In this document: positions 10,114-19,964 of the stretch, one piece after another
Position numbering within the stretch: the stretch's first letter is position 1
Layout: each line of letters starts with the position of its first letter
DNA from: an uncultured Polyangiaceae bacterium
Lineage (GTDB): Bacteria > Myxococcota_A > Polyangia > Polyangiales > Polyangiaceae
Direction of reading: 5' to 3'
DNA: 32,000 nucleotides
Assembly: GCA_964605685.1 (NCBI GenBank)
Contig: CAZSDX010000002.1
Span: 1 to 32,000, forward strand
Notes under the pieces: generated by a model
Seen by the model: the letters and a program-made list of their open reading frames with translations, nothing else
The model's database searches: none
What the model was told of the DNA's origin: nothing
Translations under genes and position numbers: made by a program

Positions 10114-11247
10114 ATGTCCGAGACCCCTTCCCGTCCCGATTCTCCCGGCGCCGACGCGCGCCCTGGCCTGCCCCCGGTCGACGTCAACGAGTACGGAGGC
10201 AAGCGCAACGGCGAGCGACAGACCCTCAACCGCCGCCTGTTCTTCCAGCTCCTGGTGTTCCGCTCCGATCGAGACGGCAGCCACCTGGCCGCCGAGGTGA
10301 TCCAGCGGCTGCGGGCCGCGGAGGTCCCGGGGGTCGTCTACGCCGACACCATGGACCCGCGCGGCTTCGGGCTGCTCACCTGGAGCGAGGCGCCGGAGCA
10401 CTTCGTCCAGCGGGTCCGCCCCCTGTTCTCCACCGTCCTCAAGGACGCCGAGCTACGCCCCGACTTCGCCATGATTGGCCGCACCTACAGCTCGGGCCAC
10501 GAGCCGGACCTGGAGCACTGGCTCCTCAGGCGCCCGGTGGAGAACGTCACCAAGGCCGCGTACCCCTGGCACGTCTGGTACCCGCTGCGGCGCATCGGCC
10601 CCTTCAACCGGATCGACCCCCACGAGCAGGCGACCATCATGCGCGAGCATGCCGCCCTCGGCATGGCCTACGGCCAGCAGGAGCTGGCCCACGACGTCCG
10701 CCTCGCCTGCCACGGCCTCGACGCCTCGGACAACGAGTTCGTCATCGGCCTCGTTGGCCCCGAACTTCACCCCCTCTCTCACCTGGTCCAGGCGATGCGC
10801 AAGACCCGGCAGACCGCCGAATTCATCGCCCACATGGGCCCCTTCTTCGTCGGCCACGTCCTGGCGCGCACCGCCGGGTTATTTCATACCCCAACCGGCC
10901 CATCCGGGAGCGAGGGACCGGGAGGGGGGAGGTCCTTGGCGGCCCGCGCCGCCCTGTCCTCCTCGGGCGACACTCGCTCGTCGCGGTTGGTGTCCACCGC
11001 CTTCATCAGCAGGTCGACGGTGATGGGGGAGGCAGGCTCGCTGGTGCGGCGGGCCACCGCGAGGGCGATCTCCTCGCGGCCCAGCGACCCGTCCCTGTCC
11101 AGATCCATCCGCTCGAAGGGATCGAGCTGGGCCCAGAAGGAACGCGCAAAGGCGTCCAGCAGCGCCACCTTGGCCTCGCGCCCGCTCCCCGGCGGAGGGA
11201 TGCACTCCGGATGCTCCCGGGCGAAGCGCACCAGCGGCTCGATGTGA
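10114..11247 (+). CDS. chlorite dismutase-family (Cld/ChdC-like) protein; 3' end doubtful
   Basis: Family-like blocks are PWHVWYPLRR, ATIMREHAALGMAYG, GLDASDNEFVIGLVGPELHPLSHLVQAMRKTRQTAEF and GPFFVGHVL. The ATG at 10114 is preferred to the TTG at 10108. Homology-like sequence stops near 10870, but no stop codon occurs until 11247. The last ~120 codons are antisense to the next gene. Confidence 0.65.
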   Translation: MSETPSRPDSPGADARPGLPPVDVNEYGGKRNGERQTLNRRLFFQLLVFRSDRDGSHLAAEVIQRLRAAEVPGVVYADTMDPRGFGLLTWSEAPEHFVQRVRPLFSTVLKDAELRPDFAMIGRTYSSGHEPDLEHWLLRRPVENVTKAAYPWHVWYPLRRIGPFNRIDPHEQATIMREHAALGMAYGQQELAHDVRLACHGLDASDNEFVIGLVGPELHPLSHLVQAMRKTRQTAEFIAHMGPFFVGHVLARTAGLFHTPTGPSGSEGPGGGRSLAARAALSSSGDTRSSRLVSTAFISRSTVMGEAGSLVRRATARAISSRPSDPSLSRSIRSKGSSWAQKERAKASSSATLASRPLPGGGMHSGCSRAKRTSGSM

Positions 11248-12533
11248 TCCATCCCGAAGAACAGGTTGCGCACCAGGGCGACGCGGTAGCTCCGCTCCTC
11301 GTCCAGGGGCGCCCCGGCGACCTCGACGATACGGTGAGCGCCGAGGTCCATGCGGGTCCGGTCATCCACCTGGAGGAAGCCCCCGGAGACCCCCCGGGAT
11401 CGGGAAAAATCCACCGCCTCCCGGAGCACCGCGCCGGGGAGCCTCGCCACCACGATCTCGTTGTCGAAGGGTACCTCCGCCTTGAGGTCGCCGTAGGTGA
11501 AGCGCCGCTCGTAGTCGCGCCCCGCCCGGATGCCTCCGCCGTTGAAGAGGGCCACCTCCGCGTCCAGGGCGTCCCGGAGCCGGGAGCAGAGCAGCTCCCC
11601 CAGGGAGGTCTGCCGCTCCCGGGTGCCGACGGAGGAGAGCGTCTGCCCCGGGTCGAGCACCAGCAGCGTCGCGGCCTCCAGCTCCCGCACTGCCTTCATG
11701 TGGCCGTCGACGCGGGCCCGGAGCGGTGCATCCTCCTCGAAATCGGCCACGTCGAGCAGGCGCACCTGGACCTCCGGAAGATCCGGCGCCCCGGCCTCCG
11801 GAGCCTCCTCCGGCCACCGCAGGTCGACCACCGCCGCATGCACCGCGTCGGATCCGGCCTTGACCAGCCAGGTGGCCCCGATCTGCTCCAGGAAGACCGC
11901 ATGCTCGTGGCCCCCGATCAGCACCGGAAAGGGAGGGCTCGCCTGGGCCCGGATCAGGGCGCGATCCGAGGCGATATCCTGGTGGGTGAAGGGGATGACG
12001 CAGGCGCAGCCCTCCCGCTCCACGAGCCGGGCGGCGGTGCAGAGCGCGGTCTCGTTCGCCGGGAGCAGCGGGAACCCGCCGAAGGGTCGCCCGCGGTAGA
12101 TCGTCGGATCATGCATCACCACGCCCAGCAGGCCCACCCGCACCGGGCGCTTGTCGCCGCCGCCGAGGTGCAGGATCTGGGTCGCGGGGAGCGGCGGGTC
12201 GAAGCCGAGGTTGGTGGAGAGCCACGTCCCCCGGAACTCCCGGACTCGCTCCTGCAAGGCATCGATGGGCAGGTCATCCTCGTGGTTGCCGAAGATGACG
12301 TGGGTGATCGGCACCGCGTTCATGCAGTCGATCATGCCCCGCCCGAGATCGAGGCTGGACAGCAGGCTCGGGGAGACAAAATCACCCGCCAGCGACACCA
12401 GCAGCAGGTCCGCCGGATCCTCCTCCGCGGCCCGGAGCACCAGCGTCCTCAGCCGGGGGAAGTTTTCCAGGATGTACACGTCGTTGACGCAGATGATCCG
12501 GAGGGAAGGCCCCCGCGTCGTTGCGGTGCGCAT
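10884..12533 (-). CDS. calcineurin-like metallophosphoesterase / 5'-nucleotidase-family protein with a C-terminal EF-hand pair
   Basis: Metallophosphoesterase motifs are ICVNDVY, LAGDFVSPS, FGNHEDD and IGGHEH. The C-terminus carries a canonical EF-hand loop DLDRDGSLGREE and a second loop DTNRDERVSPEE. Confidence 0.8.
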   Translation of the reverse strand: MRTATTRGPSLRIICVNDVYILENFPRLRTLVLRAAEEDPADLLLVSLAGDFVSPSLLSSLDLGRGMIDCMNAVPITHVIFGNHEDDLPIDALQERVREFRGTWLSTNLGFDPPLPATQILHLGGGDKRPVRVGLLGVVMHDPTIYRGRPFGGFPLLPANETALCTAARLVEREGCACVIPFTHQDIASDRALIRAQASPPFPVLIGGHEHAVFLEQIGATWLVKAGSDAVHAAVVDLRWPEEAPEAGAPDLPEVQVRLLDVADFEEDAPLRARVDGHMKAVRELEAATLLVLDPGQTLSSVGTRERQTSLGELLCSRLRDALDAEVALFNGGGIRAGRDYERRFTYGDLKAEVPFDNEIVVARLPGAVLREAVDFSRSRGVSGGFLQVDDRTRMDLGAHRIVEVAGAPLDEERSYRVALVRNLFFGMDHIEPLVRFAREHPECIPPPGSGREAKVALLDAFARSFWAQLDPFERMDLDRDGSLGREEIALAVARRTSEPASPITVDLLMKAVDTNRDERVSPEEDRAARAAKDLPPPGPSLPDGPVGV

Positions 12534-13533: not shown

Positions 13534-13861
13534 GACCGGACGATACCCGGGGGAACCCGTCCGCGCGAGGCCCGAGGGAGGGCCGTGCGGCGCTTCGGCG
13601 CCCTCATCAGGGGTCTGTCCGCCATTCTTCCGGGGGTCCGTCCGAGGCGGTTGGGGAAGGGGACGCCGGCGGAAGGGACCGCACATTTCTCGGCTCTTCG
13701 TTGGGGTCGAACGAGACTCCCAGGGGGCAACCCGGGCAGGTTGCGCCCGCTACCCACTCCTCCGCCAACAAGGGCGGACAGTCCCTAGACCCGACGTGGG
13801 TTTTACGTGACACCAACCCCCTGCCACTTCTCAACTATCCGGGGTGACTTGTGGGTCAGTG

Positions 13862-13997
13862 GGCCTTGTTCAGATCCCCGTCCACGAAGCTCGTCCACGT
13901 CCACGTCCACGAAGCTCGTCCACGGCCACGAAGCTCGTCCACGTCCACGTGGACGGGAACCGTGGCCGTGGACGTGGACGGCCTTGTGAACAAGGCC
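13862..13997. mobile_element. 136-bp MITE-like non-coding element: 11-bp perfect terminal inverted repeats, flanking 8-bp direct duplication, internal hexamer array
   Basis: GGCCTTGTTCA (13862-13872) is the exact reverse complement of TGAACAAGGCC (13987-13997). GGTCAGTG abuts both ends directly (13854-13861 and 13998-14005). The interior is 7x GTCCAC plus GGCCAC, then 3x GTGGAC plus GTGGCC, with a CACGTG centre at 13946-13951. An 18-nt unit, CCACGAAGCTCGTCCACG, occurs three times (13882, 13907, 13926). Confidence 0.55.
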
Positions 13998-14086
13998 GGT
14001 CAGTGCGAGGAACTTGGGGTTCAAAGCCTCTGATTCAGCAGGTTTTCCCAGCGAGCCGCTCGTTGTGGAGGGTGGCTGGCCTTGGG

Positions 14087-14167
14087 CTGCCCCGGATTTT
14101 GAGAAGCGGCGAGGGAAGTGGTGTCATGAAAGACCTCGCCCCGGTTCTGCCCCGAATTCTTGAGAAG
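14087..14167. repeat. pair of ~20-bp direct repeats, 60 bp apart, upstream of the ATPase gene (possible operator or promoter duplication)
   Basis: CTGCCCCGGATTTTGAGAAG (14087-14106) versus CTGCCCCGAATTCTTGAGAAG (14147-14167). They differ by one substitution and one 1-nt indel. Confidence 0.6.
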
Positions 14168-14279
14168 ATACCCGTGTTTTTCCGTAGGTGCCCCGCCATC
14201 GGAGCGGGCCACCCTCTGCTTGCGCTGGGGCGACGAGATGGCCCACAATCCAGCGCTCCGAGGGGCGAGAGAGACACCT

Positions 14280-15652
14280 ATGAGCAGCGAACCTATTCGA
14301 GAAAATCCCGGGGATCAGGGTCGACCTGGGCATCGCCCTGCCCCCCGCGCCCCCACGATCACGGAGCTCTCCGTCGCCGGGTTCAAGTCGATCCGAGACG
14401 AGATCAAGCTCTCCATCCGACCGTTGACGGTGTTGGCGGGGGCCAATAGCTCTGGAAAAACCAGCCTGCTCCAGCCGCTCTTGCTGCTGAAGCAGACCGT
14501 AGAGGCTCCCTACGACCCGGGGCCTTTGTTGCTGAACGGTCCTCACGTCGCCTTCCAGCAAGTCCGGGAGATCATCCCCCATTGCTGGAGAGAAGAGCGA
14601 TCCTCCGTGATGGATCTGGGCATCCGTGCGGACCCGTTCCACATCGCGGCGAGCTTCAGGCTCACGCCCGATGTACCTCCGGGGGTTGAGCTTCTTTACA
14701 AGGGAGAATTCGACGAGATCCTCCGACAGTTTCGGACGCAAGGGCTCGGGGAGAAGCTCGATCTGACCCCCAAGAAGAACCGATTTCTCTGGAATCTACC
14801 TGTCAACAGTGCCCAGTTCGCGGTGCTGGCTGCGCTCGGAGCCGTTTCCGCGGCGACCGACGCCGGGGCGATCTCGCGAGCCGGCGACACGGCGGAGCTG
14901 GCTGCGATGGCAAACCTGGCGTACCTGAACGAAATTCGTGGGGGAATACTTCCGTGGTGCCTCCACCTCCCGGGTCTCCGGGGGAGGCCAGAGCGGGCTT
15001 ACCCGCTCACCGTGGCGGGCCCCCTCTTTCCGGGCCCTTTCCCGTCCTATACCGCGAGCGTGATCGCCGGCTGGCAGCGCGGTCAGGCCCAGGAATTGAC
15101 GGCAACACGCGAAGATCTGGTGGCCCTCAGGCTGACCTCGACCGTCGAGGCCATCCAGATCAACGACACCCAGGTTTCGCTGCGGGTCGGGCGGCTGGTC
15201 ACCGGGAGGGGGGCCACAGAGCTTGTGGACATCTCGGACGTGGGTGTCGGGGTGTCCCAGGTGTTGCCGGTGATCGTGGCGCTCCACGCGGCGGCACCGG
15301 GAGCGCTGGTGTACATCGAGCAACCCGAACTCCATCTTCACCCCGGGGCTCAGCTGGCGCTGGCAGGGGTACTAGTGAGCGCGCTCAAGCGAGGGATCCG
15401 GCTGGTGATCGAGACCCATAGCAGCCTTCTCCTGACGGGCCTCCAGACCGAGGTGGCCGAGGGGAGGCTCGCCCCTGGAGATGTGAATCTCTCGTGGTCG
15501 AACGAGACGACGAAGGCTGGACGACGGTGCGACGCGCAGACTTGCAACAAGACGGAACGTTCGGAGAATGGCCCGTTGACTTCGACGAGGTGCAGCTCGA
15601 GGCGGGGCGTCGCTTCCTGGATGCCCTCGACCAAAAACATGGAGACGCCTGA
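14280..15652 (+). CDS. ABC/SMC-like AAA_15/AAA_21-type ATPase with a DUF3696-like C-terminal module; needs a -1 frame change near 15489-15505 (pseudogene or sequencing error)
   Basis: Walker A is LAGANSSGKTS, the Walker B/D-loop block is LVYIEQPELHLHP, and the H-loop is VIETHSS. After ...GDVNLSW the original frame degenerates. The -1 frame reads LVVERDDEGWTTVRRADLQQDGTFGEWPVDFDEVQLEAGRRFLDALDQKHGDA and stops at TGA 15650-15652. The span is 1373 nt (3n+2). The start at ATG 14280 is a best guess; 14160 and 14238 are alternatives. Confidence 0.7.
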
Positions 15653-16200
15653 TGCTCACCGGGCGGAGGCTGGTGATCGACACTTCGATAGCTCGTGCTG
15701 CAGGTCCGCCGGAGTCTCCGCACCCCCGGGGAACTCGCTGCCGCGAGTGCCTGGAGGTGGTGAAGAGCGCGGGGCATCGCCTTGTCTGGTCCAGCCAGAT
15801 AAAAAACGAATGGCTCAAGCAGCGGGAGGATGGCAGCCCTTTTGCTTCCAGATGGGCCCTCGATTGGTTGGCAACGATGGCCAAACGAGGCCGCCTCTAC
15901 CGCCCGGTGGAGGGGGAGTCCCTCGAAGCATCGCTGAGGGAGACCAGCGCCAGCCTCAAAGCCAAGCTCGCCATGATCGAGGATGTTCACCTGCTCGACG
16001 CAGCCCTGGCATCGGATCGGGTTGTGCTTTCCCTGGACGAGGAGGTTCGGGCTTGCTTGCGGTCGGCAGCGAGCGAGATCGAACCGTTGCGCAAGGTTGC
16101 CTGGGCCAACCCGCTCCGAGAGGAGGAGAACGTGGGGGAATGGCTCCGGGACGGCGCCAAGCCCAAACCCCTCCGACAGCTGGGAGCGCAACCCGGTTGA
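15652..16200 (+). CDS. PIN-like domain protein (putative nuclease partner of the upstream ATPase)
   Basis: 182-aa ORF whose ATG shares its A with the repaired ATPase stop (TGATG). It has LVIDTSIARAAG (beta1 Asp), IKNEWL, EDVHLLDAALASD and VVLSLDEE. These are spaced like the four acidic residues of PIN folds. The assignment was made by eye only. Confidence 0.55.
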   Translation: MLTGRRLVIDTSIARAAGPPESPHPRGTRCRECLEVVKSAGHRLVWSSQIKNEWLKQREDGSPFASRWALDWLATMAKRGRLYRPVEGESLEASLRETSASLKAKLAMIEDVHLLDAALASDRVVLSLDEEVRACLRSAASEIEPLRKVAWANPLREEENVGEWLRDGAKPKPLRQLGAQPG

Positions 16201-16231
16201 CACGGGACCACCAGGCAGCGGCTATGGCACG

Positions 16232-17767
16232 ATGGCGGCCATGAGCCTTTCGGGTTTGATCGGTGGTCGGCTGGTGGAGGTGAACGCCCCGGACGGCGTG
16301 CTTCGGGCGGTGTCGCCCTCGGATCTGGACGACGTGGTGGGGGAGATCCCCTTCGCCCGCTCCCTCGCCGGGGAAGCGGTGGCCGCCGCCCGCCAGGCGC
16401 AGCCAGGGTGGGACGCGCTGGGGGTGGAGGGGCGGGCGCCGTACCTGGCGCGGCTCCGGGGGCTGCTGGCGGAGCGCGAGGAGGAGATCGGCGCGCTCAT
16501 CGCCCGGGAGATGGGCAAGCCGCTGCGGGAAGGGAGGCTGGAGGCCCGGGCGATGGCCGCCAAGATCGACATCTCCCTGGGAGAAGGGCTGGCGCTGGTG
16601 CAGGACGTGGAGCTCGACGGAGGGAAGCTCGCCTGGCGTCACCGACCCCACGGGGTCCTGGCGGTGATCGGCCCGTTCAACTTCCCCCTGCACCTGGCCC
16701 ACGGGCACGTCGTCCCCGCGCTCCTCGCCGGGAACACCGTCATCTTCAAGCCCAGCGAGGTCACCCCCCACTGCGGCCTGCTCTACGCCCGGCTGCTGGC
16801 GGAGGCTGGCTTCCCCCCGGGGGTCGTCGGCGTGGTCCAGGGCGATGGCCCGGTGGGGGCCGCGCTGGCGGAGGACGACGGCGTCGACGGGGTGCTGTTC
16901 ACCGGATCCTACGAGGTAGGGGTGAGGATCCTCCAGGCCAGCGCGGCGCGCCCGGGGAAGATGCTGGCCCTGGAGTTGGGCGGCAAGAACGCCGCCGTCG
17001 TGCTCGCCGACGCCCCCCCGGAGAAGGCCCTGGTGGACGTGCTGCTCAGCGCGTTCTCCACCGCAGGGCAGCGCTGCACCTGCGCCAGCCGCCTGATCGT
17101 CGAGCGCTCCCTCGCCGAGCCCTTCATCGAGCGCCTCGCCGCCCAGGCGCAGCGGCTGGTCGTGGGCCACGCGCTGGACCCAGCGGCCTTCCTGGGGCCC
17201 CTGGCCACCGCGAGAGGGCTGGAGAAATTCGAGGCCATGCAGGCCGAGGCCGAGCGGGAAGGCTCCCGCTGCGTCCGGGCCCCGGCGGCGCCGGAGGTGC
17301 GCTGGCAAGGGCGCACCGTCCGGGGGTATTACGCGACCCCCCGCGTGCGGCGCGTGGGAAAAGTGGAGAAGACGAGCGCCTACCAGCGGGAGGAGATCTT
17401 CGGTCCGGACCTGGCGGTGTATGTGGCCGACGATCAGGACCACGCGATCGCGCTGGCGAACGACACGCCGTTCGGGCTGTCGGCGGGGGTGTGGACCCGA
17501 TCCCCGGAGCGCTTCGAGGAGTGCGCGAGGAGGCTGCGGGTGGGGTGCCTGACCTGGAACGCGCCGACGGTCGGCTCATCGAGCCGGCTGCCCTTCGGCG
17601 GGCTGGGGCGAAGCGGGAACCACCGGCCCGCGGGAGTGTTCTCGTCCAGGTACTGCGCTTACCCACTGGCGCTCTCCCGGGGGGAGGCGTCGGTGGACGA
17701 AAGGGGGCTCCCCCCGGGCTTCGGCTGGGGCGAGAAAAATCACAGCGCCGAGGGGGGGTTGGGGTAA
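16232..17767 (+). CDS. NAD-dependent aldehyde dehydrogenase, succinylglutamate-semialdehyde dehydrogenase (AstD)-like
   Basis: ALDH motifs are FKPSEVTP, LELGGKNA, catalytic-Cys block TAGQRCTCASR and EEIFGP. The C-terminus GNHRPAGVFSSRYCAYPLA resembles the AstD tail as I remember it. The start is ATG 16232 or 16241. Confidence 0.85.
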   Translation: MAAMSLSGLIGGRLVEVNAPDGVLRAVSPSDLDDVVGEIPFARSLAGEAVAAARQAQPGWDALGVEGRAPYLARLRGLLAEREEEIGALIAREMGKPLREGRLEARAMAAKIDISLGEGLALVQDVELDGGKLAWRHRPHGVLAVIGPFNFPLHLAHGHVVPALLAGNTVIFKPSEVTPHCGLLYARLLAEAGFPPGVVGVVQGDGPVGAALAEDDGVDGVLFTGSYEVGVRILQASAARPGKMLALELGGKNAAVVLADAPPEKALVDVLLSAFSTAGQRCTCASRLIVERSLAEPFIERLAAQAQRLVVGHALDPAAFLGPLATARGLEKFEAMQAEAEREGSRCVRAPAAPEVRWQGRTVRGYYATPRVRRVGKVEKTSAYQREEIFGPDLAVYVADDQDHAIALANDTPFGLSAGVWTRSPERFEECARRLRVGCLTWNAPTVGSSSRLPFGGLGRSGNHRPAGVFSSRYCAYPLALSRGEASVDERGLPPGFGWGEKNHSAEGGLG

Positions 17768-17810: not shown

Positions 17811-19964
17811 ATGGAGATCAAGCTCGCACAACGCCTCAGCCTCGGGCTCAACATCGTGATGACCCCGCAGTTGCAGCAGGCGATTCGCCTGCTGCAGCTC
17901 TCGCGGATCGAGCTGATCGACGAGGTCCGGAGGGAGCTGGAGGCCAACCCGGTGCTGGCAGACGACGACTCGGACCCGCGGGAGCGGAACGAGGTGGGAG
18001 GCCCCGGGGACTACGTGGGACGATCCAGCGACCAGGCGATGAGCGATCTGGACAACCACGCGGCGGATCGGGACATCAACGCGCGGCGGGAGGAGAAGAA
18101 GGCGCAGGAGGTCGACTGGGAGCAGTTTCTGGAGAACCGGACGCTCCAGCAACCGACCTACGCCACCCGGAGCGGCTTCGAGGAGCTGCCTCCCATCGAG
18201 CAGTCGCTGACCCGGGCAACCAGCCTGGCGGAGCACCTCCGGTGGCAGCTCCAGATGTCGGATTTCACCGAGGCAGAGCGGGCCTTCGCGGAGCTGGTGA
18301 TCTCGAACCTGGACGACAACGGGTTCCTGGATCTCAAGGGCTCGTACCAGGACGAGGCCGACGAGCTGATCAAGGAGATCGAGCGATCGCCAGCCTCGAA
18401 GTTCGCGGTGTTCAACCTGGGGGTGTTCCAGGAGAAGATGGGGAACCACGAGGGGGCGCGGCGGCAATTCATCCGGTTCCTCGGGGACGACTGCGGGGCG
18501 GACGAGCGGGCCGTGGTCGACCTGGTGCTGAAGATGGTGCGCCGCTGCAACAGCGGGGTCGAGGAGCTGATCCGCGACCTGGTGGCGCTCCCCGACAGCC
18601 AGCCCTGGGCCCGGGAGCTCCTGCCGAGGCTCAAGGCCAAGGACGCGCGGCTGAGGGACCTGCGGGAGGTGGCCGCCCAGGCGCAGCGGCAGGCCCCGAG
18701 GCTGGGCGACGGAGGCAAGCGGGTCCAGTCGCTGCTCGATGCGATGGATGGCCTGCTGCACCTCCAGCCACCTCCGATGCAGGAGCCCCTGGGGACGCTG
18801 TTTCACAGGGCCATGGCCCTGGCGCTGGACGCCCATTTCAGCGACGCCGCGGCGGTGCTGGAGCGGATCCCGGGGCTCGACGTGGGCCCGAGGGAGCGGG
18901 AGCGGGTGCTCCAGTACCTGGAGCGGCTGGCGGAGGCCCCGGAGGCGCCTGCTCAGGTACCCAGCGAGGGGGGAGACGACGAGGACAGGGAGGAAGAGCC
19001 GCCGGGGGTCAGGCTGACCATCGAGCAGATGGCGGAGCGCGCGGGACTGGACCCGGAGGACGCGCTGGAGGTGCTGCGGATGGTGCAGAACTTCGACCCC
19101 ATCGGGGTGGCCTCGCGGGACCTGCGGGAGTGCCTCCGGGTGCAGGCGGAGGCCTTCGGCTACGACGAGTTGGAACTGGCGATCATCGACCGGCACCTGT
19201 CGAACCTGGAGAAGCACAACTACGGCGCCATCGCCCGGGACCTGAAGGTGCCGCTGGAGGACGTGTACGAGGCGTGCAAGTGGATCCAGAAGCTGGAGAG
19301 CCGCCCCGCGCGGAACTTCACCGACACCGACGAGCGCAGCATCGGGATCACCCCGGACGTGTACATCGTCAAGGATGGGGACAAGTTCGTGGTGCTGGAC
19401 AACGACCGCGGGCTCCAGCGGCTCTACGTCAACGAGGCGCTCACCAAGAAGCTGCTCCACGACCCGAACGCCAAGGAGTGGGTGGGGGAGAAGCTGAAGA
19501 ACGCCCAGTGGCTGATCCGGGCCATCGAGCAGCGGCGCAAGACGATCATCCGGGTGACCGAGGCCATTGTCGAGCGGCAGCGAGAATTCTTCGAGAAGGG
19601 GGTCGCCCACCTCAAGCCGATGATCCTCCGGGACATCGCCGAGGAGGTGCGCATGCACGAGAGCACCATCTCCCGGGTGACCACCAACAAGTACGCCCAC
19701 ACCCCCCAGGGCCTCTTCGAGCTCAAGTACTTCTTCAACTCGGCGATCAAGCGCTCCGACGAGGACGACATCGCCTCCGAGAGCGTCAAGCAGGCGATCA
19801 AGCGGCTGATCGAGACCGAGGACAAGCAGAACCCCCTGTCGGACCAGGCCATCGTCGAGCGGCTGGAGAAGAACGACGGCATCAAGATCGCCCGGCGCAC
19901 CGTGGCCAAGTACCGGGAGATGATGGGGATTCTGGCTTCCAGCAGGCGCAAGAAGATGTTTTGA
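17811..19964 (+). CDS. rpoN: RNA polymerase sigma-54 factor, unusually long (717 aa)
   Basis: Region I is MEIKLAQRLSLGLNIVMTPQLQQAIRLLQLS, followed by an acidic region II. The core-binding block is FDPIGVASRDLRECL. The HTH is ESTISRVTTNKY and the RpoN box is ARRTVAKYRE. Confidence 0.95.
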   Translation: MEIKLAQRLSLGLNIVMTPQLQQAIRLLQLSRIELIDEVRRELEANPVLADDDSDPRERNEVGGPGDYVGRSSDQAMSDLDNHAADRDINARREEKKAQEVDWEQFLENRTLQQPTYATRSGFEELPPIEQSLTRATSLAEHLRWQLQMSDFTEAERAFAELVISNLDDNGFLDLKGSYQDEADELIKEIERSPASKFAVFNLGVFQEKMGNHEGARRQFIRFLGDDCGADERAVVDLVLKMVRRCNSGVEELIRDLVALPDSQPWARELLPRLKAKDARLRDLREVAAQAQRQAPRLGDGGKRVQSLLDAMDGLLHLQPPPMQEPLGTLFHRAMALALDAHFSDAAAVLERIPGLDVGPRERERVLQYLERLAEAPEAPAQVPSEGGDDEDREEEPPGVRLTIEQMAERAGLDPEDALEVLRMVQNFDPIGVASRDLRECLRVQAEAFGYDELELAIIDRHLSNLEKHNYGAIARDLKVPLEDVYEACKWIQKLESRPARNFTDTDERSIGITPDVYIVKDGDKFVVLDNDRGLQRLYVNEALTKKLLHDPNAKEWVGEKLKNAQWLIRAIEQRRKTIIRVTEAIVERQREFFEKGVAHLKPMILRDIAEEVRMHESTISRVTTNKYAHTPQGLFELKYFFNSAIKRSDEDDIASESVKQAIKRLIETEDKQNPLSDQAIVERLEKNDGIKIARRTVAKYREMMGILASSRRKKMF

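Follow-up and report, generated by a model that had tools for sequence, protein, structure and literature searches.

Two described defence systems, HEC-03 and Menshen, are the closest points of comparison for a pair of overlapping genes found in a 32,000-nucleotide stretch of DNA from an uncultured Polyangiaceae bacterium (assembly GCA_964605685.1, contig CAZSDX010000002.1, positions 1 to 32,000, forward strand; this whole stretch is hereafter called the window). The first gene encodes an ATP-binding cassette (ABC) ATPase and the second a small protein with a predicted PIN fold. HEC-03, the Hma-embedded candidate 03, was discovered in the setting of Hma loci, is included in PADLOC-DB v2, and joins an ABC ATPase to a PIN partner 'similar to VapC' (Payne et al., 2024, bioRxiv 10.1101/2024.01.29.577857). 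In E. coli it cut the plaquing of several phages, with both genes required, and it was toxic on induction (Payne et al., 2024). The tested locus, from Pseudomonas cichorii, comprises a gene for a 'DUF3696 domain-containing protein' (322707-324092) and then an overlapping gene for a 157-aa hypothetical protein (324079-324552) (Payne et al., 2024).

Menshen is the three-gene system NsnA-NsnB-NsnC (Millman et al., 2022; analysed by Li et al., PMC12065111). NsnB is an ABC ATPase with a DUF3696 tail, a degenerate Walker B motif (E-N) and GxG in place of SGG, while NsnC carries an inactive PIN-like N-terminal domain, which acts as an adaptor, and a separate C-terminal nuclease or toxin domain (Li et al., PMC12065111). 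The PIN-like fold is Rossmann-like, and all of the Menshen inPIN families are without the catalytic acidic residues; in an AlphaFold 3 model of NsnB4-NsnC2, the PIN-like domain of NsnC lies between two NsnB DUF3696 tails (Li et al., PMC12065111). The survey that described these families was seeded on the DUF262 domain of NsnA, and would therefore have missed pairs that stand without NsnA. Control of a nuclease by an ATPase has also been described for Septu, PARIS and Gabija, as reviewed by Li et al. (PMC12065111).

The locus in the window is probably a self-contained two-gene module of the HEC-03 type, in which an NsnB-like ABC ATPase with a DUF3696-like tail is coupled to a PIN nuclease. The pair is a divergent variant of the HEC-03-type defence pair and is also related to the core of Menshen, NsnB-NsnC. 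Computed here were the homology of the two proteins, the PIN fold, the conservation of its acidic site, the strict linkage and coupling of the genes and the lack of a third conserved gene. An earlier reading of the same DNA (the original prediction) had stated that no named system pairs this type of ATPase with a PIN partner; HEC-03 does so, and in Menshen the PIN-like domain of NsnC is the predicted docking partner of NsnB; that statement must be withdrawn.

Organisation and conservation of the gene pair

Both genes lie on the forward strand, the ABC ATPase gene (gene 1) at 14280-15652, with its ATG at 14280, and the PIN gene (gene 2) at 15652-16200. Gene 2 is an intact open reading frame (ORF) whose ATG (15652-15654) has one base in common with the TGA stop of gene 1 (15650-15652). 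The features of the pair are as follows.

14280..15497, + strand: N-terminal 406 codons of gene 1, an ABC ATPase of the OLD/AAA_15-AAA_21 type, NsnB/HEC-03-like, up to the frameshift
14439..14462, + strand: Walker A motif GANSSGKT, residues 54-61, from sequence reading and conservation
15237..15260, + strand: equivalent of the signature loop, DVGVGVSQ, residues 320-327, with GxG replacing the SGG of classical ABC ATPases
15306..15344, + strand: Walker B and D-loop block LVYIEQPELHLHP, residues 343-355, with E-Q replacing the canonical D-E
15408..15425, + strand: H-loop IETHSS, residues 377-382, from conservation
15496..15497, + strand: frameshift site, GG here and GGG in the closest relative, from DNA alignment with that locus (L003)
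15498..15652, + strand: C-terminal tail of gene 1 in the -1 frame (ERDDEGW...DQKHGDA, stop), a DUF3696-like module that aligns with all relatives
15650..15654, + strand: TGATG overlap of the stop of gene 1 and the start of gene 2, from sequence reading
15652..16200, + strand: gene 2, a 182-aa single-domain PIN-fold protein, from the AlphaFold2 model, Foldseek and conservation
15679-15681, 15808-15810, 15982-15984, 16015-16017 and 16036-16038, + strand: acidic-site codons of gene 2 for D10, E53, D111, D122 and D129, respectively

The coordinates, the TGATG junction, the Walker A motif, the LVYIEQPELHLHP block and the H-loop were all present as the original prediction had listed them. Its expectation that the two families would be recurrent neighbours in unrelated genomes was also borne out. 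When the repaired gene 1 was used in tblastn searches, the PIN gene proved in 44 of 45 loci to be immediately preceded by an ATPase gene of the same orientation; these ATPases show 36-63% identity and are complete except where the contig or the gene is broken. The single exception retains a PIN fragment only. As the pair recurs in 44 of 45 independent loci, it is no chance juxtaposition. The three relatives of gene 2 found first already lay directly downstream of AAA_15/AAA_21 genes (421-442 aa), in unrelated surroundings.

A scan of the genomes of 185,579 species, seeded with patterns from a four-sequence alignment and hence incomplete, returned 42 loci across distant phyla. They belong to Latescibacterota, Chloroflexota, Cyanobacteria, Thiotrichales (Parabeggiatoa and Thiomargarita), Spirochaetia, Acidobacteriota, Planctomycetota, Poribacteria, Acetothermia, Sorangium and Methanothrix/Methanosarcinales archaea. 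In 33 relatives the two genes mostly overlap by 1 or 4 nucleotides or are separated by gaps of 0-3 nucleotides, and translational coupling is therefore a trait of the family. A third gene of the system was sought by clustering the ORFs within 4 kb of the pair over 38 loci, the window included, and was rejected: none is conserved across lineages, and shared neighbours occurred only among six syntenic Latescibacterota genomes. An ORF that overlaps the start of the ATPase gene in L003 has no counterpart in the window.

The gene 2 family is large. A word-seeded search with the single protein found three relatives and a profile search 211, while an exhaustive HMMER search gave 2232 clusters at E <= 1e-3 and 556 at E <= 1e-30, counted at 50% identity. 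Among the best 150 of the listed relatives, nearly all are stand-alone proteins of about 170-190 aa.

Gene 2 encodes a predicted PIN-fold nuclease

The AlphaFold2 model of gene 2, built from a 64-sequence alignment, has a predicted local distance difference test score (pLDDT) of 95.2 and a predicted template modelling score (pTM) of 0.90, and its strands and helices alternate. When this model was compared with the PDB using Foldseek, the top ranks were almost all PIN proteins: HARP (7og5), ZC3H12C (7ndj), VapC of M. tuberculosis (7vwo_A and 5x3t_B), PAE0151 and Nob1; the PDB entries in these ranks include 2fe1 and 2lcq. The match to the M. tuberculosis VapC chain 7vwo_A had a Foldseek probability of 1.00 and a TMt of 0.62.

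D10, E53 and D111 are invariant in all 64 relatives and D122 in 63 of them; position 129 is D in 55, E in 5 and N in 4, and position 116 is always E or D. The residues W54, W72, W151, N153 and W164 are likewise invariant. Strand 1 (residues 6-9) precedes D10 in the model, E53 is part of helix 48-54, D111 marks the meeting point of helices 102-110 and 112-119, and D129 comes after strand 124-126. We take D10, E53, D111 and D129 to be the canonical catalytic positions of PIN proteins, as these are known for VapC structures. The modelled fold, the structural matches and the conservation across 64 relatives thus support the PIN-like protein of 182 aa with an acidic site that had been proposed, and gene 2 is predicted to be a metal-dependent ribonuclease effector.

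Curated sequence models are much less informative. No PIN model reached its threshold with the window protein (PIN_12 of Pfam, E = 0.21; Mtu_PIN_fam of NCBIfam, E = 0.052), and the matches of the 64 relatives to PIN_12, PIN_3, PIN_10 and Zc3h12a were all sub-threshold, the best being 0.0013 for PIN_3 and 0.013 for PIN_12. A sequence search of the PDB with a profile of the 64 relatives gave chance-level matches only, so that the protein is assigned to the PIN fold from its predicted structure and its conserved site. Five of the 64 relatives weakly match the PADLOC candidate PDC-M11A (best 5.6e-5); PDC-M11 is identified in the supplement by family number alone.

The rank order of the structural matches raises the question of whether the pair serves housekeeping RNA processing or repair, with the PIN protein as a HARP-like enzyme (protein-only RNase P) and the ATPase as its cofactor. 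HARP 7og5 is the best Foldseek match (E = 2.9e-3) and is of similar size, and many copies of the pair have housekeeping genes as neighbours, with synteny among the Latescibacterota. The template modelling scores (TM-scores) to HARP are, however, just 0.40-0.46, with root-mean-square deviations of 6-8 A, and those to VapC chains are higher. The sporadic distribution of the 42 loci in the incomplete genome scan is unlike that of an essential function, copies are frameshifted or interrupted in several genomes including that of the window, and the ATPase belongs to the defence-associated OLD/NsnB clade. An identity as HARP or protein-only RNase P was rejected, the top match being weak and at odds with the sporadic distribution and the obligate ATPase partner; a housekeeping role of this kind is highly improbable.

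Gene 1 encodes a defence-associated ABC ATPase

The repaired product of gene 1 matches the Pfam families AAA_21 (2.8e-22) and AAA_15 (2e-18). Among PADLOC models, NsnB of Menshen scored best (3.6e-47, 160 bits), followed by PDC-M55A (6.5e-35) and the HEC-03 ATPase (6.7e-35; model PDLC04148, 458 positions, labelled HEC-03B). The models of AriA, HEC-01A, GajA, Old and AbiLi matched far more weakly, with the GajA, AriA and Old matches limited to the ATPase motifs. All 26 relatives scanned match NsnB (best 2e-64), the HEC-03 ATPase (best 1.1e-42) and PDC-M55A (best 6.3e-40). PDC-M55 was considered as the identity of the pair and rejected, as it is a three-gene cassette.

Among the 26 relatives, the invariant residues are G54, N56, G59 and K60 in Walker A; D320, G322, G324, S326 and Q327 in the signature loop; E347, Q348, P349, E350, H352, H354 and P355 in the Walker B and D-loop block; E378, T379, H380 and S381 in the H-loop; and W406, G413, G426, P432, D434 and F435 in the C-terminal tail. 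The Pfam and PADLOC matches together support the original assignment of gene 1 as a defence-associated ABC ATPase of the AAA_15/AAA_21 type.

The DUF3696-like character of the tail, also proposed originally, is supported at the level of the family. Pfam DUF3696 (PF12476) is matched by 18 of the 26 relatives at E <= 0.01 (best 2e-5), whereas the repaired window protein, whose tail is more divergent, has no match at E <= 1. The tail aligns throughout the family.

The pair might be seen as a Menshen system or its remnant, that is, NsnB-NsnC minus the NsnA sensor: NsnB is the best PADLOC match of gene 1 (3.6e-47, and up to 2e-64 in relatives), and docking on the DUF3696 tails of NsnB is predicted for the PIN-like domain with which NsnC starts. 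Several findings speak against this. A gene for NsnA (ParB-DUF262 plus ParBDB) upstream of the ATPase was neither found in the window, where no ParB-DUF262 gene adjoins the pair, nor conserved in the 38 clustered loci, across which no flanking gene is conserved between lineages. Gene 2 encodes a single domain of 182 aa without a C-terminal effector, it keeps the catalytic acidic residues that Menshen inPIN families have lost, and no family member matches the NsnC model. Remnants would not form a family of more than 2000 clusters with uniform length and architecture. The Menshen-remnant reading is thus largely refuted already, and we would now give it hardly any probability.

Relationship to HEC-03

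The ATPase of gene 1 is homologous to that of HEC-03, whose profile it matches. In a BLASTP comparison with the P. cichorii protein, identity was 47% from Walker B to the H-loop (6e-20) and 36% around Walker A (5e-9). The HEC-03 ATPase contains MEQPEIHLHP and DVGFGVSQ, and the unusual EQPE.HLHP and DVG.GVSQ motifs are thus common to HEC-03 and the window family.

For the PIN proteins, a HEC-03 family of 669 proteins was gathered, mostly from Pseudomonas, Burkholderia and metagenomes, and 36 of these were aligned. Comparison of the two family profiles with hhalign gave a probability of 92.7% (E = 4.3e-7) over the N-terminal 90 columns. A global profile alignment (E = 2.8e-6, 76%) placed D10, E53, D111 and D129 opposite position 5, E52, D110 and D129 of the HEC-03 family, position 5 being E in the tested protein and D in the family consensus. 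Modelled with AlphaFold2 (pLDDT 93.6), the HEC-03 PIN protein has the same order of secondary structure as gene 2, and its PIN matches in the PDB are equal in strength, including the same VapC chain, 7vwo_A.

PADLOC accounts for one half of the pair. The original prediction had raised the question of whether a tool would assign the pair to an already named system; the ATPase does match the NsnB and HEC-03 models, while the PIN partner matches no PADLOC model.

A frameshift in the ATPase gene

The reading frame of gene 1 is broken after W406 (15495-15497), and the last 51 residues continue in the -1 frame, beginning ERDDEGWTTVRRADLQQDGTFGEWPVDFDEV and ending DQKHGDA at the TGA of 15650-15652. 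Aligned with its nearest relative, L003, to which it is 74-78% identical in nucleotides, the locus reads CTCTCGT-GGTCGAACG in the window where L003 has CTCTCGTGGGTCGAACG; the break is one G missing from the GGG run at 15496-15497 relative to L003. Restoring this G yields a protein of 457 aa with ...NLSWVERDDEGW..., matching ...NLSWVERNEEGW... of L003. The repaired protein aligns end to end with 34 relatives, tail included, in agreement with the length of about 457 aa that had been given for the repaired gene.

Programmed frameshifting was considered and rejected: the site, CTC TCG TGG TCG, is without a slippery heptamer, the ORFs of relatives are continuous, and L003 differs by exactly one G. 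Because there is no slippery heptamer and the relatives are uninterrupted, the frameshift is read as a mutation or an assembly error. The original frame of gene 1 crosses gene 2 out of frame and does not close until a stop at 16242-16244, and the shifted ATPase frame forms an ORF of 694 aa (14160-16244) that spans all of gene 2. Automatic gene calling could yield this chimeric ORF and overlook the PIN gene, which might be why the protein collection gave no exact copy of gene 2.

If real, the frameshift removes exactly the tail and abolishes the coupling to gene 2; in the absence of a sequencing error, ribosomes would run out of frame across the PIN start. The copy in this genome would then probably be a decaying and inactive one. 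Whether the locus is, in this genome, a pseudogene, a dead copy without current function, is evenly balanced. The ATPase coding sequence lacks one G relative to its closest relative, the shifted frame stays open past the start of gene 2 as far as 16244, and other copies look damaged: that of Sorangium sp. So ce134 (L042) shows breaks in both genes, and the PIN genes of two Latescibacterota (L040 and L041) look interrupted in tblastn. Against this, errors of assembly or sequencing also typically take the form of one base lost in a run of G, gene 2 is undamaged and retains all conserved residues, and no further lesion was seen in 1.9 kb. The pseudogene reading in any case concerns this copy only, and is compatible with a HEC-03-type module as the best explanation for the family.

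In L042 (CP150314.1) the tblastn matches of both ATPase and PIN are split, in different frames. The two parts of the PIN match lie about 180 nucleotides apart in L040 and about 1 kb apart in L041, where just the C-terminus of the ATPase is left. Together, these three sequences suggest recurrent decay of the cassette.

Genomic surroundings of the pair

The setting described in the original prediction, a lower-GC islet with a transposon-like element just upstream and housekeeping genes on both sides, was recovered. GC content is 0.62-0.67 over 14001-16000, compared with about 0.70-0.73 nearby; it also drops to 0.63-0.67 in other parts of the window. Profile searches identified GDPD and metallophosphatase/5'-nucleotidase genes upstream of the pair on the opposite strand, and a sigma-54 gene lies downstream, so that the flanks are housekeeping-like. 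The gene directly downstream of the pair is presumably an aldehyde dehydrogenase, from its ELGGKN and GQRC motifs and without profile-search confirmation. A search around the pair for a sigma-70-like promoter and a convincing terminator found neither.

The upstream element is real as a structure. It is an imperfect palindrome of 136 bp (13862-13997) with perfect terminal inverted repeats of 11 bp (GGCCTTGTTCA ... TGAACAAGGCC) and internal repeats of CGTCCACG. On either side stands an 8-bp direct repeat, GGTCAGTG, at 13854-13861 and 13998-14005, resembling a target-site duplication. Its predicted fold is a long hairpin (-53.7 kcal/mol, z = -7.8). Judged from its sequence, the palindrome has the anatomy of a miniature inverted-repeat transposable element (MITE), known here from its single copy in the window. 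Rfam matches around the pair were dismissed as chance microRNA matches to this palindrome.

Two of the flanking genes are themselves unusual. The metallophosphatase/5'-nucleotidase (10884-12533, - strand) ends in a C-terminal EF-hand pair, an uncommon combination (Pfam Metallophos, 5_nucleotid_C and EF-hand_7). The sigma-54 (RpoN) gene (17811-19964) encodes 717 aa, with an unmatched stretch of about 350 residues between the activator-interacting domain (7-49) and the best-matched core-binding part (402-542). RpoN proteins are typically much shorter.

Elsewhere, genomic contexts of the pair differ across lineages, as expected of a horizontally moving module, which supports the mobile cassette originally proposed. 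In Tolypothrix, for instance, an intact pair at 6,232,917-6,234,855 of AP018233.1 has a glycosyltransferase gene on one side and rpsB-tsf on the other; a further intact relative is that of Sorangium cellulosum So ce26, around 11.65 Mb in CP012673.1. Few neighbours are defence-like: an HmaA-like helicase (two loci), caspase/CHAT genes in two Parabeggiatoa loci, three mad2 matches and two PDC-S02 matches. In the two Latescibacterota loci with the helicase (L012, 2098-5571, and L037, 4063-6315), the pair is just downstream of this HmaA-like SNF2 protein (PADLOC HmaA, 2.9e-172 and 6.6e-65, respectively).

One further locus, on a metagenome contig (L049, 10550-12321; ERZ27251176 k141_291796), has VWA and AAA_5 (MoxR-like) genes before the pair and same-strand N6_N4 DNA methyltransferase and Thg1-like genes after it. 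These surroundings may be a larger defence-type cluster in that organism.

Proposed mechanism and competing interpretations

By analogy with HEC-03, with the Menshen NsnB-NsnC model and with the control of nucleases in Septu, PARIS and Gabija, the ATPase would oligomerise and hold the PIN protein on its C-terminal tails. The tail is the predicted docking site for the PIN partner, following the AlphaFold 3 model of NsnB4-NsnC2 (Li et al., PMC12065111). With no gene like NsnA to serve as a separate sensor, the ATPase itself may detect infection. A phage cue coupled to the binding or hydrolysis of ATP would then release or activate the PIN protein, which would cleave RNA through the metal site formed by D10, E53, D111 and D129 and stop the infection, probably at the cost of the cell.

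Several observations weigh against a HEC-03-type defence module, and they concern the PIN fold, the proposed function and the genomic context. The Foldseek E-values of gene 2 are all above 1e-3 (3e-3 to 5e-2), with TM-scores of 0.4-0.6. When the PADLOC models, including the HEC-03 and NsnC PIN models, were run against gene 2 and its 64 family members, there was no match, in the case of HEC-03 at E <= 1. The relation to the HEC-03 PIN protein is confident over the N-terminal half only, and a single-sequence comparison of the two was insignificant (E = 0.011, 3.9%). The anti-phage activity of the window family is predicted by analogy with the tested HEC-03 system, and PIN docking and sensing by the ATPase are likewise taken from models of other systems.

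The context adds to these points. The original prediction had asked whether homologues sit in defence islands, and such a context is weak: most of the 126 nearest-neighbour ORFs in 37 loci are metabolic, and the pair often stands alone among housekeeping genes. In six Latescibacterota genomes it is syntenic, and so vertically kept. A tblastn search with gene 2 of 72,556 plasmids and 50,697 phage genomes found nothing, and a scan of IMG/VR gave no relatives of gene 2 on viral contigs. Carriage by mobile elements was rejected, as no copies were seen on the plasmids, phage genomes or IMG/VR contigs.

This weak guilt by association, with mostly metabolic neighbours, is also why a toxin-antitoxin-like reading is still reasonable. 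The pair would then be an addiction or stress module, with the PIN protein as a VapC-like toxin, the ATPase as a large antitoxin or regulator, and defence not its main role. The PIN fold with an intact acidic site, translational coupling as tight as in toxin-antitoxin operons, the toxicity of HEC-03 on induction, the solitary insertion among housekeeping genes with patchy phyletic spread and recurrent decay, and the Pfam label of AAA_21 (putative AbiEii / type IV toxin-antitoxin toxin) are all compatible with it. On the other hand, a VapB-type antitoxin is absent, the gene order and the partner match ATPase-effector defence systems, and the one tested relative of the same architecture, HEC-03, defended against phage. 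We consider this reading unlikely as the whole explanation and reasonable as a rival or complement to the HEC-03-type defence module; the two overlap, abortive-infection systems often being toxin-antitoxin-like, and they differ in emphasis more than in mechanism.

A further step in interpreting the HEC-03-type module would be that the family represents a sensor-less, possibly ancestral form of the partnership between DUF3696 ATPases and PIN proteins, in which the PIN protein is both docking domain and effector. Menshen would then be derived from it by inactivation of the PIN domain, acquisition of a new toxin domain and recruitment of NsnA. We put this forward tentatively, as a possible but somewhat doubtful scenario. 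If it were true, the sensing of infection would fall to the ATPase alone, making the family a minimal model in which to understand the triggering of NsnB-type ATPases.

Comparison with known systems

The pair does not constitute a new category, as a DUF3696-tailed ABC ATPase that controls a PIN protein is already known from HEC-03, where it was tested, and from Menshen, where it was modelled. What it adds, modestly, is a sister family of PIN proteins of about 180 aa that is strictly coupled to NsnB-like ATPases and widespread in environmental bacteria and some archaea. Pfam and the PIN models of PADLOC v2 miss the gene 2 family, and current defence annotation pipelines would therefore overlook it.

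VapBC toxin-antitoxin systems resemble gene 2 in the PIN fold and the four-position acidic site, and M. tuberculosis VapC structures are among its best structural matches. They differ in that no VapB antitoxin accompanies gene 2, the gene upstream of the PIN gene being the 457-aa ATPase in all 44 linked loci, and in that gene 2 has no Pfam PIN match above threshold. Septu PtuAB, PARIS AriAB, Gabija GajAB, AbiL and HEC-01 are alike in that an OLD-type ABC ATPase controls an associated nuclease. The effectors of Septu, PARIS, Gabija and AbiL are, however, HNH, TOPRIM or DUF4276 proteins, whereas the effector fold here is PIN, and gene 1 is much closer to the NsnB and HEC-03 models.

HEC-03 shares the overall layout, an ABC ATPase of about 460 aa followed by an overlapping small PIN gene on the same strand. 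The ATPases nevertheless align around the nucleotide-binding motifs only, the inserts between these being unalignable. The PIN proteins are about 180 aa long in the window family and about 160 aa in HEC-03, and the C-terminal W-x-N-P ... W-L motif of the window family (W151, N153, W164) is without an aligned counterpart in HEC-03. The PADLOC PIN models, moreover, do not recognise the window PIN family. HEC-03 occurs in Pseudomonas and Burkholderia, whereas the window family is found in environmental Chloroflexota, Latescibacterota, Cyanobacteria, Thiotrichales, Myxococcota and Methanothrix, beside an Hma helicase in just 2 of 37 loci. Phage defence has been demonstrated for the P. cichorii HEC-03, while the window family is known from sequence and models.

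With Menshen the pair shares its best-scoring defence model (NsnB for gene 1), a degenerate Walker B motif (E347-Q348 in the window), the GxG signature (G322-x-G324), at family level a DUF3696-like tail, and a gene downstream of the ATPase that starts with a PIN-fold domain. It differs in having no NsnA (ParB-DUF262) sensor gene, and in a PIN domain that makes up the whole protein, keeps its catalytic acids and carries no C-terminal toxin domain. As the catalytic residues kept here are lost in the PIN-like domains of Menshen, the two families offer a comparison through which the evolution of ATPase-PIN partnerships, and the sensing of infection without a dedicated sensor, can be approached.

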